A stretch of DNA of 27,657 bases from a virus (lineage: Duplodnaviria; Heunggongvirae; Uroviricota; Caudoviricetes), in the IMG/VR virus record IMGVR_UViG_2703718778_000008, one strand, 5' to 3'. Positions 4,479-26,212 of the stretch are shown here, piece by piece; position 1 is the stretch's first letter, and every line of letters starts with the position of its first letter. The notes under the pieces are model-generated. The model saw only the letters and a list, made by a program, of their open reading frames with translations, was not told the origin of the DNA and searched no databases. The position numbers and the translations under genes are program-made.

Positions 4479-7260
4479 TCTGCATATCAGGGTTGCTCTG
4501 GCGGCGGCAGACACCCTGACACAACCTCTCAGGCGCGCCCGCGAAACCGTGGGCGCGCTTTCTGATTCCCTCCGTGAAACTCAGGACTCCATCCGCTCGC
4601 TTGAACGGCAGAGTGAAGCCTTTGCTGCGGCACAGACTAAATTTGACGAAGCCACCCGGAAAATTGCCGCTGTTCAGCAGCAACTGAACCGTCTGCAGCA
4701 GGCGGAGCGTGAGGATACCGTGCTCAGTGAACGGCAGCGTGAAATGATGGCTTCGCTGACCACCCGGCTTGAACGTCTGAACCGGGTGAGGGATGTACAT
4801 CAGCGACGCCTGGAGGATTCACGCCGGGAGCTGGAGAGACACGGTATTGCCGCAGAGGGCAGCAGTCAGACCATACAGGCAGCCATTCGCCGGACGGCAG
4901 AGTATAACGAAGAGCTGGCGCGACAGCGGCAGGCACTCGCACAGGTGACCCGTGCACAGCAACGCTATGAACAGGCGCAGGAGCGACTCGGGCGGATACG
5001 TAATGCCGGTGCGGCGGCACTGGCTGCCGGTGCAGCAGGACTTTACGCTGGCGGGCGTGCTGTTGCGCCGGTGATGGATCTCCAGCGTCATGGTGCCGTC
5101 ATTGCGGCTCAGGCAGGAGAGGGCGCGTCAGATGCCGTGGGGTATACCGGGGTTATAAACCACATGGTTCATACCGGTATCACACCGGATGCACAACTGG
5201 CGGCTGAAGCTGTGGGTGCTGTCCGCTCCACTCTGGGTGGGCTGGGGGCGGTTAGTGAGAATGAACTGACCCGAATCACCCGAAAAATGCTGGATATGCA
5301 GGCCGTGATGGGGGGCGATATCCCGCAGCACATTCAGGCGGCTGCCATCATGATCAAAAACGGTCTTGCACGCAGCAGTGACGAGGCGGTTGATCTGATG
5401 GTGGCGGGCATGCAGCGCATGGGGCCGGTTATGCGCGATGAGCTGCCTGAGATCCTTCACGAGTATTCGACCCATTTTCGTAACATGGGGCTGACAGGGT
5501 CGGAAACCATGACGCTCCTTGCGGATATGGCGCAGCAGGGGAAGTTTGCGCTGGATAAAACCGGCGATGCCATCAAGGAGTTCAGTATTCGCGGCTCCGA
5601 TATGTCAAAGGCGAGTGCTGAAGCGTATGCGCTTATCGGGCTGGATGCAGCCAGGATGTCATCGGCTGTAGCCAGTGGTGGAACGGCTGCACGGGCTGCG
5701 CTGCAGAAAACAGCCTCGGGTCTGTTGCAGATCGTCGATCCGGCTGAGCGGGCCAATGCGGCCATCGCACTTTTTGGTACACCGGTTGAAGATCTGTCTG
5801 TCGATCAAATCCCTGCCTTTCTTGGCGCGCTGGCGCGGGTGTCTGACCGTATGGCTGACGTGTCTGGTGTGGCGGACCGGATGGGGCAAACCCTGCGTGA
5901 CAATCTGAGTGGTGATGTGGCGCGGCTTACCGGGACGTTCAGCGCGCTGAGAAGTGGGATTATCGGGGAGATTACGGACGATCTGCGTGGGCTTGTCCGG
6001 ATGGCCACAGCGTGGGGTGAGCGTCTGCAGGCGTGGGTGAATGCGCATCCGGAACTGGTGCGAATGATTGCGCTGACGACGGGAGCGGTGCTGGCGTTAA
6101 CCACAGCGGTGGGGGCGTTGTCCGTTGCGGCCTGGATGGTTGTCGCACCGTTACTGAAACTGCGTCTGGGGCTTGCCCTGCTTCGCGCGATCCCGGCCGG
6201 ACTCTCCGTTGCCGGTACGCTGTTTGGCGGACTGACGGGTGTGATTTCAGCCGTGGGGGCTGCGCTGGGGGCGCTGACCTGGCCGGTTGTGGTGGCGGTG
6301 GGAGCCCTGGTCGGTGGTGCTCTGCTGATCTGGCGCTACTGGGATCGGGTCAGGGCGTTTGTGAGCGGATTTATTGAAGGGGTACAGTCAGCACTGGCGC
6401 CCTTCATGGCGACAGCCTCCCGTTTTGCGCCGCTGCTGGATCTGGTTTCAGGGGCACTGTCCCGTATTCTGGGATGGTTTAAATCCCTGTTAACGCCAGT
6501 CTCCTCCACGCGTGATTTGCTTGAGCAGTGCACCTCTGCCGGGCAGACGTTCGGGAGCACTCTGGCCGGTGCGTTAGCCACGGTTTTTTCGCCCCTGAAA
6601 GCTCTTATTGACGGTCTGGCGTGGGTGCTGGAAAAACTCGGTGTTCTGCCCGGTGAAGCTGAGCGGGTTAAGCGAAAACTGGATGAGGCCCGTAAAACGC
6701 CGGTGGCATGGGAGTGGGATCCGGAACAGAAAAAAATGGTTCAGAAGGCGTGGCACTGGTCGCCTCCTGGTGGGGCCAGTGTGCCTTCCGGCGCCTCCGG
6801 TACACAGCCTCCGCCGGTGGCGCTCCCTGCGGGGATAGCGCCGGACGGTAACCGTAACGTTCTCCGTCACCTGAAAGGCATTGAGGGGAATACCGGTGGT
6901 CTGCTGGCTGAAAACCGTAAACGTATCGGACCCGGAGATATTGTGTTTAAACATCTTCCACGGGCGCTGGCGGTCCGGGGGCAGTGGCATGAACCTGTCG
7001 TTGCGCCGTCTTCCGGCGGAATGCGCGCGCTGCCACAGGAGGAGATTCAGGTGCAGCAATGGCCGACGGCACGCCCGGCGCCACGAATGCACCAGCAGGA
7101 AACCTTCGCCAGCGCCTTTCAGGGGGAGATACATGTGCATCTTCACGGGGTGAGTTCGTATAATCCCCGGGAACTGGCGCGCATGGTTGGTGACGCTGTC
7201 AGGGCGGAAATGAACAGAATGGCACGTGCCGGAACCGGCAGCTTCCGCGATCGCGACTGA
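4468..7260 (+). CDS. T: Tail tape measure protein
   Basis: About 930 aa; coiled-coil N-terminal region and Gly/Ala-rich hydrophobic middle segment; follows E/E'. Start at ATG 4468 (MMNNLHIRV) with GGAAG upstream; the track's earlier start is a GTG. Confidence 0.85.
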   Translation: MMNNLHIRVALAAADTLTQPLRRARETVGALSDSLRETQDSIRSLERQSEAFAAAQTKFDEATRKIAAVQQQLNRLQQAEREDTVLSERQREMMASLTTRLERLNRVRDVHQRRLEDSRRELERHGIAAEGSSQTIQAAIRRTAEYNEELARQRQALAQVTRAQQRYEQAQERLGRIRNAGAAALAAGAAGLYAGGRAVAPVMDLQRHGAVIAAQAGEGASDAVGYTGVINHMVHTGITPDAQLAAEAVGAVRSTLGGLGAVSENELTRITRKMLDMQAVMGGDIPQHIQAAAIMIKNGLARSSDEAVDLMVAGMQRMGPVMRDELPEILHEYSTHFRNMGLTGSETMTLLADMAQQGKFALDKTGDAIKEFSIRGSDMSKASAEAYALIGLDAARMSSAVASGGTAARAALQKTASGLLQIVDPAERANAAIALFGTPVEDLSVDQIPAFLGALARVSDRMADVSGVADRMGQTLRDNLSGDVARLTGTFSALRSGIIGEITDDLRGLVRMATAWGERLQAWVNAHPELVRMIALTTGAVLALTTAVGALSVAAWMVVAPLLKLRLGLALLRAIPAGLSVAGTLFGGLTGVISAVGAALGALTWPVVVAVGALVGGALLIWRYWDRVRAFVSGFIEGVQSALAPFMATASRFAPLLDLVSGALSRILGWFKSLLTPVSSTRDLLEQCTSAGQTFGSTLAGALATVFSPLKALIDGLAWVLEKLGVLPGEAERVKRKLDEARKTPVAWEWDPEQKKMVQKAWHWSPPGGASVPSGASGTQPPPVALPAGIAPDGNRNVLRHLKGIEGNTGGLLAENRKRIGPGDIVFKHLPRALAVRGQWHEPVVAPSSGGMRALPQEEIQVQQWPTARPAPRMHQQETFASAFQGEIHVHLHGVSSYNPRELARMVGDAVRAEMNRMARAGTGSFRDRD

Positions 7261-22478: not shown

Positions 22479-23522
22479 ATGAGTAAACGCAAAAAATACA
22501 CCGGAAAGCGGGGGCAGGATTCGCTACACGATGCACTGAAATCAACGCCTGCACTCAGCGCATTCACCTTTGATGGGCCCTATGAAGTCAGCCGCATGGA
22601 TCTCCTGGATAACATGTCATGTGCAGATAACGGGCGCTACTTTGATACCCCCATGGACTGGAACGCTATCGCCCGTGCATCCCGTCGTGCGTCCTGGCAT
22701 CAGTCGGCTTTGTACTTCAAGCGCAACGCCCTGAACGGGTGCTTTGTTCCTCACCCTCTGCTGTCCCGCCAGGCGTTTTCAGCCTTTGCGCTCGACTGGT
22801 TTGTGTTTGGTAATGCCTATCTTGAAGTGCGGCGTAACAGGCTGGGGGAACCACTCCTGCTTCGCCCGGCACTGGCAAAATATACACGCAGGGGAAGTGA
22901 CCTGGATACCTACTGGTATCTCAACGACGACGGTACGGAGTTCAGTTTCAGGAAAGGGACTGTGTGCCACGTGCTTAATCCTGATATTAATCAGGAGATC
23001 TACGGGATGCCGGAATATATCGGCGGGTTGCTGTCTGTCAGCCTGTCAAACTCAGCGGATACATTCCGCAAGCTCTACTACGATAACGGCTCGCATGCCG
23101 GGTGTATTATCTATGTAGGCACACCTCAGGCGAATGCGGAAAGTGTCGAGGCCATTAAAAAAACGCTTACGGATTCCCGTGGTCGCGGGGCGTTTAAAAA
23201 CCTGTTTCTTCATGCGCCGGGTGGTGGCAAGGATGGTGTGCAAATACTGCCGTTCCAGCAGATAACCGCAAAGGATGAATTCCTGAACATCAAGGGGAGC
23301 GCCCGCGACGATATCCTTGCTGCCCATCGTGTACCACCTCAACTGATGGGGGCAATGCCTGACGGGAATGCGGCGTTTGGTGACGTTGAGAAAGCGGCGA
23401 GGGTGTTTTTCATCAACGAGTTGCAACCTGTCATGGAGGCCATGAAGCATGTCAATGAATGGCTTGGCGTTGAGGTGATGCGCTTTAACCCCTATGCCCT
23501 GCTTCTGGATAACGCCAGCTGA
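22479..23522 (+). CDS. Q: Portal protein
   Basis: 347 aa directly downstream of P; sequence reminiscent of P2 gpQ. Confidence 0.9.
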   Translation: MSKRKKYTGKRGQDSLHDALKSTPALSAFTFDGPYEVSRMDLLDNMSCADNGRYFDTPMDWNAIARASRRASWHQSALYFKRNALNGCFVPHPLLSRQAFSAFALDWFVFGNAYLEVRRNRLGEPLLLRPALAKYTRRGSDLDTYWYLNDDGTEFSFRKGTVCHVLNPDINQEIYGMPEYIGGLLSVSLSNSADTFRKLYYDNGSHAGCIIYVGTPQANAESVEAIKKTLTDSRGRGAFKNLFLHAPGGGKDGVQILPFQQITAKDEFLNIKGSARDDILAAHRVPPQLMGAMPDGNAAFGDVEKAARVFFINELQPVMEAMKHVNEWLGVEVMRFNPYALLLDNAS

Positions 23523-23587: not shown

Positions 23588-24091
23588 TTAACGGAATGCG
23601 GATGGCGTTCTTCTTTGCAGCTTGCTGATAATATGCATCTTCATACTGTTTACTATCGGCAGCCATTCCCTGTCACCGTCTCCGTTGATGACCACGCGAA
23701 TGGAGGTATCATCTTCCACGCGAACCCGAAGAGATACACCGTCTTTTCCGACGGAATGTAACTCCATTGCCAGGACTATGTTTACCGACTCTCCTTCATC
23801 GTGTGAGTCAACCCATGTTCTTACAGCCATCCGGAATATGTTATCTGTGTCGGTTGCAATCATATTTACCGGAAATGGCCTGAAGTCCCGATCGTTTCTG
23901 CACGGAAACCCCGTATCAACGTAACGATGATGCTCGCCGTCTTTGTCTTCCCATGTCTCTGAAGGCAATTCCAGCCACTGCTCATAAAAAGCAACCAGCT
24001 TTTCAGCCTGATTGCGCAGAATCCCTGTAACCTCCCGCCTCGCGTCCCGGCTCTTTTTGTTTGCCAGGTACAAATCGCGAAAATGGCTCAT
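23588..24091 (-). CDS. Hypothetical protein (167 aa), accessory hotspot gene
   Basis: Strong RBS (AAGGAG 6 nt upstream of ATG 24091). Acidic, no transmembrane segment, no motif I can assign. Confidence 0.6.
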   Translation of the reverse strand: MSHFRDLYLANKKSRDARREVTGILRNQAEKLVAFYEQWLELPSETWEDKDGEHHRYVDTGFPCRNDRDFRPFPVNMIATDTDNIFRMAVRTWVDSHDEGESVNIVLAMELHSVGKDGVSLRVRVEDDTSIRVVINGDGDREWLPIVNSMKMHIISKLQRRTPSAFR

Positions 24092-24711
24092 GTCGCTCTC
24101 CTTTGGTCTGTTTATGCCAGCCTGTATTCTGCGCTCACCTCATATTGTGCGCAAGTTTTCACCCGTGAATGACTGATACTTTAAATTCTATTAACTTTAT
24201 GATTTCAGTGATTTTTGTCTCTCTTTTTTATCCCGTTCGTCACGTCCGTTTCCCTCCCGATCTCCGACCTCGCCAGACGCAATCAGACGCATTCTGACGG
24301 CCTGTTTCCCTGACCATGTTTTGATGTGGTTTTTCAAAACTGGCTTCACTGCGCGCGTATCACGCGCAATACGACCCCAAATAAAGCAACCTGCCTTCCA
24401 CCCCTCAATTCGGGCGCCCTTCCCTCGTCGCCTGCGCGCTGCAATTGCCTCGTTTTTCGTGCACCGTGCAAAGTGGCTTCAGCCCGCGCCGTTACTGGGC
24501 TGAGTGGGGATGAAACACATAAGAAAAATTGTGCAATTTCGTGCACTTTTGTGCAGTTTGAAACGGGTATCTGTTTGACACTGGTACTTACTTTGCGCTA
24601 ACTTTACTCGACCAGAAATTTCAATGAATCGGATGAGGTTGTTTGTCATACGACCTCGGTTAGCTAGGTTGCCTTAATCAAAAGGCATGTTTGATACTGG
24701 AGGAGGTTAAT

Positions 24712-24747
24712 ATGAATAAAGCATTTGACGAATTTGATGGATTCTGA
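24712..24747 (+). CDS. Candidate leader peptide (11 aa, MNKAFDEFDGF)
   Basis: Near-perfect RBS GGAGGAGG (24699-24706) 5 nt before the ATG; followed 20 nt later by an intrinsic terminator. Confidence 0.3.
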   Translation: MNKAFDEFDGF

Positions 24748-24766
24748 ATGTGTTAACCTCGATAAG

Positions 24767-24795
24767 GCGGAGACTGATCTCCGCCTTTTTTATTG
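24767..24795 (+). terminator. Intrinsic terminator / candidate attenuator immediately upstream of the hotspot gene at 24806
   Basis: GGCGGAG (24767-24773) / CTCCGCC (24780-24786), loop ACTGAT, followed by TTTTTTATT. Confidence 0.65.
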
Positions 24796-24805
24796 GTAAA
24801 GAAAT

Positions 24806-25309
24806 ATGGCTATGGACTCAGTAACGATACAAATCATTAGCAATATGATAGTCCTGTTTGGTGTCATTGTTGCTATCTGTACAATTATCTATAACGTTCG
24901 TACGGCAAAAAAAACACAAACCGCTAATTTTTTATTTGAAAGTCGCCAGGATAAGGAATACCTGGAATCATTACATCTCCTCAGGAGAATTCATCGCTCA
25001 GGGAAATCGTTTCGTGCTTATGTTTTTCCTTGTGAAGGCGGGGCTATTACGGAAGAGGAGATGACCGAACGTCGCAAGTTTCAGTACATTCTTAACTTTT
25101 ACGAGAGAGTTGCAGTTAGTATCCGTGAAGGTATTTATGATGAAAGGATGATCAAACGAACGTCCTTTACAACGATTATTACAACTTATGATATTGCAGA
25201 ACCCCTGATTAAGGCTATCAGAGAAGATACTCAATCAAAAACAGCGTACCAGGAGTTTGAATGGCTGGTAAAACGATGGAAAGCTCGTCCTCTTGATAGG
25301 GATGTGTAG
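24806..25309 (+). CDS. Hypothetical membrane-anchored protein (167 aa), AT-rich accessory hotspot gene
   Basis: Markedly lower GC by eye than surrounding phage genes. N-terminal hydrophobic helix IQIISNMIVLFGVIVAICTIIY followed by a charged soluble domain; no recognisable catalytic motif. Confidence 0.6.
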   Translation: MAMDSVTIQIISNMIVLFGVIVAICTIIYNVRTAKKTQTANFLFESRQDKEYLESLHLLRRIHRSGKSFRAYVFPCEGGAITEEEMTERRKFQYILNFYERVAVSIREGIYDERMIKRTSFTTIITTYDIAEPLIKAIREDTQSKTAYQEFEWLVKRWKARPLDRDV

Positions 25310-25324
25310 TTTATTTCTTGCATT

Positions 25325-25351
25325 AGAGCGAGGTTATTGGTGCCTCGCTCT
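25325..25351. terminator. Stem-loop between convergent genes, candidate terminator
   Basis: AGAGCGAGG (25325-25333) / CCTCGCTCT (25343-25351), 9-nt loop. Confidence 0.4.
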
Positions 25352-25356
25352 TTAAA

Positions 25357-25674
25357 TTATCGAGCCGTTCTTGCGCTCATGATGCTTTGCGCCAGCAACT
25401 GCCAGCCCTCTTTCTGTTGCCCGCGCTTGTCCTGATACCTGTTTACCTGCAAGTTTCCGTGCACCAGAATCAGATCGCCTTTTCTGTGTTTTGCCAGTTC
25501 TTCGTGCTGCTTCCCGAATGCAATAAGGTAAAGCCACATTGTGGTTGGCTGTTCTGCGCCATGGCAGGGTAGTGATACCGCCAGTTGTGCCGTTGTGACG
25601 TTGGTTCCTTTGGTTGTTCTCCTTGTGTTCGGGTCTGCTGCCAGTCGTCCCTCTGTTGCAACCTGTGTTGGCAT
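25357..25674 (-). CDS. Short SSB-like OB-fold protein (105 aa)
   Basis: ...MWLYLIAFGKQHEELAKHRKGDLILVHGNLQVNRYQDKRGQQKEGWQ... parallels the E. coli SSB core (...[42 protein letters not shown]...); lacks the acidic C-terminal tail. GGGAGA upstream of ATG. Confidence 0.5.
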   Translation of the reverse strand: MPTQVATEGRLAADPNTRRTTKGTNVTTAQLAVSLPCHGAEQPTTMWLYLIAFGKQHEELAKHRKGDLILVHGNLQVNRYQDKRGQQKEGWQLLAQSIMSARTAR

Positions 25675-25706: not shown

Positions 25707-26045
25707 TTAGATGGCTGGCAGATCTCCGCCAGCGCCGTAGATAAACAGAATTCGCTTCATGATTTCGCTGCGCTTACAGGCTTCGATGACTGATTTTTCC
25801 TGTTGCCATTCTGCCCGTTGCGCCAGCTCCAGTCGTTCCTTTTCCGTTAGCTTCCGGTAATGCGTTATCTTGTCCGTGTACCCGTCCACAACCAGCAGCC
25901 CTTCGCGTACCATCTTCCCGGCGGCCTGATTAATGATGGTCCTTTTCACGCCCAGTTTTTCAACCAGCTCTGGTGCGCTGAAGCGTGCGTGCGTTTCCAG
26001 GTAGCGTAAAATGATTACCTTTCCGGTCATTCTGGGTGTCTTCAT
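25707..26045 (-). CDS. Putative winged-helix DNA-binding protein (about 112 aa)
   Basis: ...ILRYLETHARFSAPELVEKLGVKRTIINQAAGKMVREGLLVV... looks like a wHTH. Start set at the internal ATG that overlaps the upstream stop (ATGA). Confidence 0.4.
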   Translation of the reverse strand: MKTPRMTGKVIILRYLETHARFSAPELVEKLGVKRTIINQAAGKMVREGLLVVDGYTDKITHYRKLTEKERLELAQRAEWQQEKSVIEACKRSEIMKRILFIYGAGGDLPAI

Positions 26046-26212
26046 TTGGCGGCTCCTTCGTTGTTCCGGCGTTCGCGGAGTTCGGTCAGTGCTGCCAGTA
26101 AATTTTCCCACCATGTTTCTTCCACAACCGGATTTCGTCGTGAAAGCAGCTGCTGCGCCGACTCAATCATTTTCGTAAGCTCTTTGTCGCTGATCCTCCT
26201 GATGTCGTTCAT
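26042..26212 (-). CDS. Small hypothetical protein (56 aa)
   Basis: Internal ATG preceded by AAGGAG 7 nt upstream: MNDIRRISDKELTKMIESAQQLL... Confidence 0.4.
   Translation of the reverse strand: MNDIRRISDKELTKMIESAQQLLSRRNPVVEETWWENLLAALTELRERRNNEGAAK

Follow-up and report, generated by a model that had tools for sequence, protein, structure and literature searches.

The gene studied here lies at 24806–25309 on the plus strand of a 27,657-nucleotide (nt) stretch of tailed-phage DNA (Caudoviricetes; IMG/VR record IMGVR_UViG_2703718778_000008, the whole of which we call the window), and its product is almost certainly a member of the DUF4760 family. Sequence comparisons support placing it in a short cassette that is horizontally exchanged cargo of the cos-proximal hotspot of P2-like prophages, with a putative promoter, a conserved leader peptide and an intrinsic terminator ahead of the gene. 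Our best guess at the function of the protein, a tentative one, is phage exclusion or abortive infection.

The Pfam profile DUF4760 (PF15956) matched residues 14–158 of the product over profile positions 2–141 of 141 (E = 2.7e–35, 122 bits against a cut-off of 25), and the PHROG match was phrog_2284 (E = 2.4e–68), annotated as of unknown function; an NCBIfam scan gave nothing useful. The sequence-only reading, made without database searches, had described an undescribed orphan with no recognisable family, and this description does not survive the full-length match to a family with hundreds of relatives. In the prophage of E. coli JNEC-KY208 (99.7% identical) RefSeq already names the same gene “DUF4760 domain-containing protein”, starting it at the third codon (window 24812); the first ATG (24806) fits the alignment of homologues. 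Moreover, “DUF4760” stands in Table S5B of Rousset et al. 2022 as system #3, the third commonest cargo of the P2 hotspot, with 1,102 occurrences among 18,150 loci and the description “1 TM in protein 1, 4 TM in protein 2”, TM standing for transmembrane (PMC9122126). The window gene is a rare allele of this already tabulated cargo that lacks the 4-TM partner, and the family is catalogued, yet uncharacterised.

A word-indexed search found 112 relatives across the Enterobacterales, many of them called DUF4760 by NCBI or UniRef, and a second such search with a profile brought hardly any further named proteins. Exhaustive HMMER search of 1.84 billion cluster representatives gave 768 representatives at 50% identity (E ≤ 0.001), nearly all stand-alone proteins of 150–200 amino acids (aa). 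Long family members owe their length to tandem DUF4760 copies or N-terminal extensions, apart from a single possible fusion to a CmpB-like membrane domain; none of them showed a fused enzymatic domain. Few residues are invariant or nearly so in an alignment of 64 representatives (N97, E100, E113, T146 and W158, plus a YQEFE motif), and these do not suggest an enzyme. The window protein carries the family motifs as LNxxE…IYDE…T-YQEFE-L…RW and has the family architecture of about 150–200 aa, in which a hydrophobic helix at the N-terminus precedes a helical domain bearing LNxxE, YDE and RW; compared with it, DUF4760/phrog_2284 members show the same length, N-terminal TM helix and motifs, and no structural difference. 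Among 5,426 complete E. coli genomes, leader and gene together occur in 297 (5.5%), always chromosomally, with alleles at 60–80% nucleotide identity in 291 and the window allele (at least 99% identity) in only 2. Reading frame and length are kept across genera. Chance occurrence of an open reading frame (ORF) in AT-rich junk DNA has only the atypical composition to recommend it and is refuted by the full-length match to a curated family, the 768 representatives, the conserved frame and length and the confident fold prediction described below, leaving it practically no probability.

The ORF exists where the sequence-only reading put it, with 167 codons beginning with ATG, and what that reading said of composition and topology also stood up. 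The GC content of the ORF is 39.7%, and 36.3% at third codon positions, vs. a window mean of 54.6% (standard deviation 4.2%, 504-nt windows); the lowest GC anywhere in the window falls at about 24450 to 24950. There is one strongly hydrophobic segment, at residues ~6–29 (Kyte-Doolittle 2.71 over 19 residues), all others scoring at most 0.81. Because RTAKK directly follows this segment, the positive-inside rule predicts that the C-terminal domain is cytoplasmic; the short N-terminus would be periplasmic and the remaining ~135 aa would lie in the cytoplasm. A holin or lysis role was rejected on the grounds of the single TM helix, the large cytoplasmic domain and the distance from lysis genes, the sole hint of a holin being a sub-threshold match in one distant relative.

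On one side of the gene lies the portal gene (22479–23522, PF04860), and on the other a minus-strand block comprising a gene for a protein like single-stranded DNA-binding protein (SSB) and a winged-helix gene, with the replication endonuclease further along the minus strand, as seen in the identical JNEC-KY208 prophage. The DUF4760 gene is therefore situated between portal gpQ and replication gpA, beside cos, and runs in the direction opposite to the SSB and replication genes; location and orientation are both as the sequence-only reading had them. This gpQ–gpA interval is the P2 hotspot defined by Rousset et al. 2022, where old and tin sit (PMC9122126). The features of the cassette and its borders are:

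24092–24559: conserved cos-proximal backbone block, its end marking the left boundary of the variable slot at ~24559
24524–24556: junction motif AAAAATTGTGCAATTTCGTGCACTTTTGTGCAG, with three GTGCA-containing repeats, present in cassette-bearing and cassette-free P2-like loci
24575–24604, plus strand: putative promoter (–35 TTGACA at 24575–24580, weak –10-like TAACTT at 24599–24604)
24635–24657 and 24670–24687, plus strand: two 5′ leader hairpins, from the minimum free energy (MFE) and centroid folds of the window leader
24700–24707, plus strand: Shine-Dalgarno (SD) sequence GGAGGAGG, the strong SD of the mini-ORF
24712–24747, plus strand: mini-ORF MNKAFDEFDGF-stop, 11 codons (ATG at 24712, TGA at 24745–24747)
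24753–24760, plus strand: anti-SD box TTAACCTC, complementary to the SD region GAGGTTAA
24764–24793, plus strand: intrinsic terminator, from scan and folds, with a 10-bp GC-rich stem (24764–24787) and a T-run (TTTTTT) to 24793
24806–25309, plus strand: DUF4760 gene, 167 aa, predicted to comprise an N-terminal TM helix (residues ~6–29) and a cytoplasmic all-helical domain
25325–25351: 3′ hairpin with a 10-bp stem, lying between the stop codons of DUF4760 and of the convergent ssb gene (fold z –3.0)

That the slot is variable, as the sequence-only reading had proposed, follows from prophages that share the backbone and then diverge. The block 24092–24559 recurs at 96–98.5% identity in about 10 further E. 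coli prophages without the gene, with similarity ending at query position 468, and on the right the similarity to the prophage of STEC17-183 resumes at ~25350. We would accordingly delimit a mobile AT-rich unit of about 790 bp (~24560–25350), including ~250 bp of upstream leader. STEC17-183 has the same backbone and a different insert in the slot, namely a frameshifted gene for a 3-TM protein that corresponds to “system 4” of the Rousset hotspot. (This copy, at 6354–7084 of locus L003, is split over two frames as an apparent pseudogene and is unannotated in RefSeq.) Conversely, the same cassette is found, at the equivalent position and next to a ParM/StbB partition system, in Citrobacter phage Shae_phiSM and E. 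coli no107, members of another P2-like lineage (Xuanwuvirus). The cassette is 82.6% identical to that of Shae_phiSM over window 24524–25309, whereas the terminase/portal backbones of the two lineages are only ~72% identical, which supports horizontal exchange of the cassette. A 19-mer taken as that of P2 cos was not found at up to 3 mismatches, and the exact position of cos is inferred only. The motif AAAAATTGTGCAATTTCGTGCACTTTTGTGCAG at the left junction is conserved in the window, Shae_phiSM, no107 and STEC17-183; it stands upstream of the cassette in loci L009, L013, L014, L016 and L091, P2-like loci from several genera, and a scan flagged a small hairpin there on each strand. Terminase or a host factor may act at this site, or the motif may serve as an anchor for recombination when cargo is exchanged.

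Rousset system #3 and the window agree in hotspot, orientation and family, the window protein being 78% identical to protein 1 and both having one TM helix, and a system #3 variant (L009) has the leader mini-ORF and terminator just as the window does. The common E. coli P2 variant carries 3′ of DUF4760, on the same strand, a 280-aa 4-TM protein with no Pfam match (L009 6538–7380; L005 4538–5380), and has a ParM/StbB partition system as its neighbour, whereas the window has no such partner and ssb as the neighbour. Since the window does without the 280-aa protein, the pairing is optional.

We examined the leader in 18 enterobacterial loci, fetched through homology of the downstream DUF4760 protein and not through the leader. 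All 18 have the same layout (mini-ORF, then terminator, then gene), and the mini-ORF core D-E-[FY]-D-[GW]-[FL]-stop is likewise present in 18/18, in peptides such as MKKVFDEFDGF, MKKMYDEFDGF, MEAMFDEYDWF and MQLDEYDGF with a stop codon that may be TAA, TGA or TAG. In the 18-locus alignment codon positions 1 and 2 of D-E-F-D-G-F are invariant while third positions vary, and this pattern indicates that selection acts on the peptide. (A count of 60 synonymous vs. 6 non-synonymous changes in the core is biased by the search pattern and is not used as evidence.) The RNA is also structured. Across 20 sequences the terminator has 97% of cells paired, with both-side changes at 2 pairs; a 5-bp hairpin holding the stop codon in its loop has 94% paired, with both-side changes in 3 of the 5 pairs; and the SD:anti-SD helix has 74% paired, with little covariation. 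The whole leader structure is 88% paired, vs. 37–62% in slid controls. MFE and centroid folds enclose the mini-ORF within the SD:anti-SD helix in the window (z –3.0) and in L009, the 74%-identical E. coli variant (z –2.8), and a hairpin of different sequence occupies the place equivalent to the 5′ hairpins in L009 and other loci. The leader is missing from family members further removed (Morganella, Photorhabdus, Halomonadaceae, Pasteurellaceae). Rfam gave no match to it at threshold, the best being isrP at 27.6 bits vs. a gathering score of 45.

Upstream of these elements, TTGAC[ATC] is conserved at the –35 position in most aligned loci; a consensus promoter scanner made no call at 24575–24604, and the promoter there is inferred only. 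Between the –35 and –10-like elements, ~90–130 nt upstream of the mini-ORF, many loci (L014, L016, L018, L042 and L046 among them) have a palindrome TTACC-N5/6-GGTAA that is degenerate in the window and, from its form, looks like the operator of some dimeric regulator. A promoter between terminator and start codon was considered and rejected, as only 12 nt separate the T-run from the DUF4760 ATG. With no room for a promoter there, the gene would be expressed by terminator read-through, and leader-peptide attenuation is the simplest reading of the leader's layout. The attenuators trpL, pheL, mgtL and tnaC share with it a short ORF with a strong SD, then an intrinsic terminator before the gene, and conserved RNA helices. 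The …DEFDGF peptide matches no described leader peptide known to us or found in our literature search. Against this reading stands the lack of any clear antiterminator in the leader folds, which offer the SD:anti-SD helix and the stop-codon hairpin only.

The same conservation can be read in another way, with the mini-ORF encoding a functional acidic micropeptide (…FDEFDGF-COOH) that is one of two products of the module, either a labile antidote that would hold the DUF4760 protein inactive, as in toxin-antitoxin pairs, or a mimic of acidic, aromatic C-terminal tails like the SSB tip. Selection on the peptide, with variation restricted to third codon positions, speaks for this; Phe or Leu stands C-terminally, right before the stop, in 17 of the 18 loci; the motif is found elsewhere without DUF4760; and the soluble domain of the DUF4760 protein is rich in basic residues (26 K+R). 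The tip of E. coli SSB, …DFDDDIPF, also resembles the peptide, as we see it. However, a peptide of 11 residues is likely to be unstable, the fixed layout of SD, mini-ORF and terminator before the gene is that of a classic cis-acting leader, and changes at third positions covary in part with bases beyond the stop codon, so that RNA structure is a constraint as well. We consider a two-product module improbable.

The motif does occur away from DUF4760. Scanning IMG/VR for the FDEFDGF-stop pattern gave 48 hits, of which 33 are followed by a terminator and then a DUF4760 gene (hmmsearch E ≤ 1e–41). The remainder include mini-ORFs MFDEFDGF-stop or MFDEFDGFDEFDGF-stop, with the motif single or repeated (L053, L056, L057, L070), several of them on phage contigs with RusA-like and lysozyme-like genes, as read from ORF translations. 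In large T4-like contigs (L058, L061, L062, L072) the motif ends a 21-aa ORF that lies shortly ahead of gp47/gp46-like recombination nuclease genes. Stand-alone or degenerate copies, as leader-plus-terminator units without a downstream DUF4760, were seen in L091, L067 and L077. FDEFDGF-stop may be a general phage regulatory peptide or micropeptide.

The wider genomic context of the family is that of accessory genes in several unrelated temperate phages. DUF4760 is directly downstream of cI in Pseudomonas phage D14E, is a neighbour of the integrase gene in both Alteromonas phage P24 and a gut myovirus prophage, lies inside the tail cluster beside a repressor and an Ant gene in a Morganella prophage, accompanies BRO genes in Acinetobacter phages, and has P2-type terminase/portal neighbours in several genera. 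Scanning one genome per species, with a 13-sequence alignment as query, gave 37 loci, for 28 of which we examined 132 neighbour proteins. These matched 121 different Pfam families, the only recurrent ones being P2-type terminase and portal, Bro/Ant, tail fibre and LysR. No conserved partner gene was found among the 132 neighbours from the 28 species-level loci, and for this reason the DUF4760 protein appears, from gene content, to act alone.

These positions, together with the defence-rich character of the hotspot, are why we favour phage exclusion or abortive infection, to which we would give somewhat less than even weight; the exclusion candidate in a variable slot proposed by the sequence-only reading survives to this extent, as a hypothesis. 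Old/tin and three further cargo systems of the hotspot are defensive (PMC9122126). Under this proposal the cassette would be self-contained, with putative promoter, structured leader carrying the mini-ORF, intrinsic terminator, gene and 3′ hairpin in that order; the protein would be made from the prophage and would work alone at the cytoplasmic face of the inner membrane; and incoming phages would be excluded, or the infection aborted, as with other single-gene membrane-anchored accessory proteins of prophages. Expression would probably be low or conditional through leader-peptide attenuation, because full-length transcription must pass the leader terminator.

Several results weigh against an exclusion role. 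A PADLOC-DB v2.0.0 scan of the protein, a check that the sequence-only reading had suggested, returned 0 families at E up to 1. About a dozen kinds of defence model matched the neighbours, each in only 1 or 2 of the 132, and none recurs. The TM proteins of validated P2/P4 hotspot systems (gop, RT-nitrilase 1TM, the AC1 TIR system, hydrolase 3TM and others) showed no similarity to the window protein (at most 4.6 bits). Neither the tested systems in Table S2 of Rousset et al. (PMC9122126) nor the supplementary files examined for Vassallo et al. 2022 (PMC9519451) contain the window sequence, and a literature search for DUF4760 and PF15956 yielded one incidental annotation and no functional study. 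The hotspot also carries non-defence cargo, namely partition systems and cytolethal distending toxin (PMC9122126). Lastly, not all members are mobile or phage-borne. In Succinivibrio (L098–L102, 5001–5486) the gene holds a fixed place, flanked by isocitrate dehydrogenase and a peptidase M20 gene, as seen in many independent samples, and several enterobacterial copies stand among housekeeping genes (astB, cstA and aldehyde dehydrogenase genes). DUF4760 is often but not exclusively phage cargo, and such fixed chromosomal genes weaken a purely defensive interpretation.

The main rival draws on these last points: the protein may be a membrane-tethered adaptor or regulator with an accessory or cellular role outside defence (envelope, stress, or prophage maintenance and induction), benefiting the lysogen in some other way. 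The housekeeping synteny kept by the Succinivibrio copies across many samples and the enterobacterial copies between astB, cstA and aldehyde dehydrogenase genes speak for it, as do the want of any enzymatic motif in the family and the non-defence cargo for which the hotspot is known. Leader-peptide attenuators, too, classically control metabolic or stress genes. It accounts less well for the fact that the family recurs, in temperate phages unrelated to one another, where exclusion genes classically lie (next to cI or the integrase, or in the P2 hotspot), and for its frequency at a hotspot rich in defence systems. We regard such a role as rather unlikely, and as the chief competitor of exclusion.

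The sequence-only reading had further suggested profile and Foldseek searches. The profile side settled the family, as described above; the structural side pointed to EDS1 with no sequence-level match behind it. An AlphaFold2 model from the 64-sequence alignment is all-helical and very confident (mean predicted local distance difference test, pLDDT, 96.6; predicted TM-score, pTM, 0.85), with helices at residues 3–48, modelled as a single long helix, and at 50–65, 69–72, 83–107, 113–142 and 149–160. The Foldseek top ranks are EDS1 chains, with probability 0.84–0.97 and query TM-score 0.52–0.57 at non-significant E-values of at least 0.4, and several of the top PDB entries are titled as complexes with pRib-ADP, pRib-AMP or ADPr-ATP. 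As the query is all-helical and the EP domain is the only all-helical part of EDS1 proteins, we presume from the model that this domain is what is matched. Two methods place it closest among solved folds, all-helical and over ~141–156 of the 167 residues, at 7–12% identity in structural alignments and with no profile match: the Pfam matches at E ≤ 1 do not include EDS1_EP (PF18117), and when PDB sequences were searched with a profile (E ≤ 10), no EDS1-family chain came up and the matches were at chance level only. A fold search of BFVD gave one significant match, which is unnamed. The literature describes EP domains as having no structural counterpart beyond the EDS1 family (PMC6377607), and our own literature search found no paper connecting them with bacterial or phage proteins. 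We take the likeness as a fold-level lead drawn from a model, not as homology.

Taken further, this lead would make the protein a membrane-tethered sensor, the counterpart of the EP domain of EDS1, PAD4 and SAG101, that binds a small ligand, either a peptide or derived from a nucleotide, perhaps as a dimer, and signals through its anchor. The confidence of the model, the first place of EDS1 chains in Foldseek (some of them ligand complexes) and the existence of tandem two-domain DUF4760 proteins (P0210) would fit. Pfam and PDB-profile searches, on the other hand, found no sequence similarity, and the Foldseek E-values are not significant; neither a TIR gene nor any other signal-generating enzyme is found in the window cassette or among the recurrent neighbour families; and DUF4760 proteins differ from the EDS1 family in having only a membrane anchor ahead of the helical bundle in place of the N-terminal lipase-like domain. 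In its fullest form, a relative or convergent equivalent of the EP domain would, tethered to the inner membrane, sense a small nucleotide-derived or acidic-peptide ligand and bring about phage exclusion, its synthesis gated by an undescribed …DEFDGF leader; like the sensor idea itself, this is a long shot. The sensor and the two-product module are attractive, thinly supported, and in part overlap with exclusion. Both the EP-like fold and the DEFDGF leader seem unreported in the literature that we searched.

Comparison with known exclusion proteins gives no sequence relative. Old is a soluble nuclease of the ATPase-TOPRIM kind, and Tin targets the ssDNA-binding protein of T-even phages; the window protein is unlike them in its predicted form, a membrane-anchored helical bundle. 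No relationship to either was detectable, nor was there a match in PADLOC, which models known defence proteins. What they share with the window gene is the slot, in which old and tin are prophage-expressed phage-exclusion genes (PMC9122126). The sequence-only reading adds that both, like the window gene, run opposite to the early operon. Lambda SieB, P22 SieA, T4 Imm/Sp and HK97 gp15 are comparable only in how they may work, as small inner-membrane proteins from independently regulated accessory genes of prophages; compared through Pfam and PADLOC scans only, they show no sequence relationship to DUF4760. SieB, SieA, Imm/Sp and gp15 are for that matter unrelated to one another.

The genes around the cassette merit brief description. 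A 167-aa ORF on the minus strand at 23588–24091, between the portal gene and the cos-proximal block, is of unknown function (phrog_5091, E = 1e–40) and has an identical copy in related prophages with or without DUF4760. On the other side, also on the minus strand, the SSB-like protein (25357–25674) has the OB fold (PF00436) in only 105 aa and terminates in …SIMSARTAR, without an acidic C-terminal tip. Such a tip is typical of bacterial SSBs, and we have likened the mini-ORF peptide …FDEFDGF to these acidic, aromatic tips, possibly a coincidence. Next on the minus strand (25707–26114) is a winged-helix, MarR-like protein that matches phrog_142, “Ren-like exclusion protein” (E = 4.7e–28), and weakly the winged-helix components of PADLOC systems; its gene is conserved backbone adjoining the hotspot.

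DUF4760 is among the commonest cargo of the P2 defence hotspot, and a role for it, if demonstrated, would annotate thousands of prophage genes. From the leader peptide and terminator we would expect conditional expression, and the two may represent a new class of regulatory peptide common to several phage groups. If the EP-like fold is true, a key immune domain of plants would have its first structural relative from a non-plant source.

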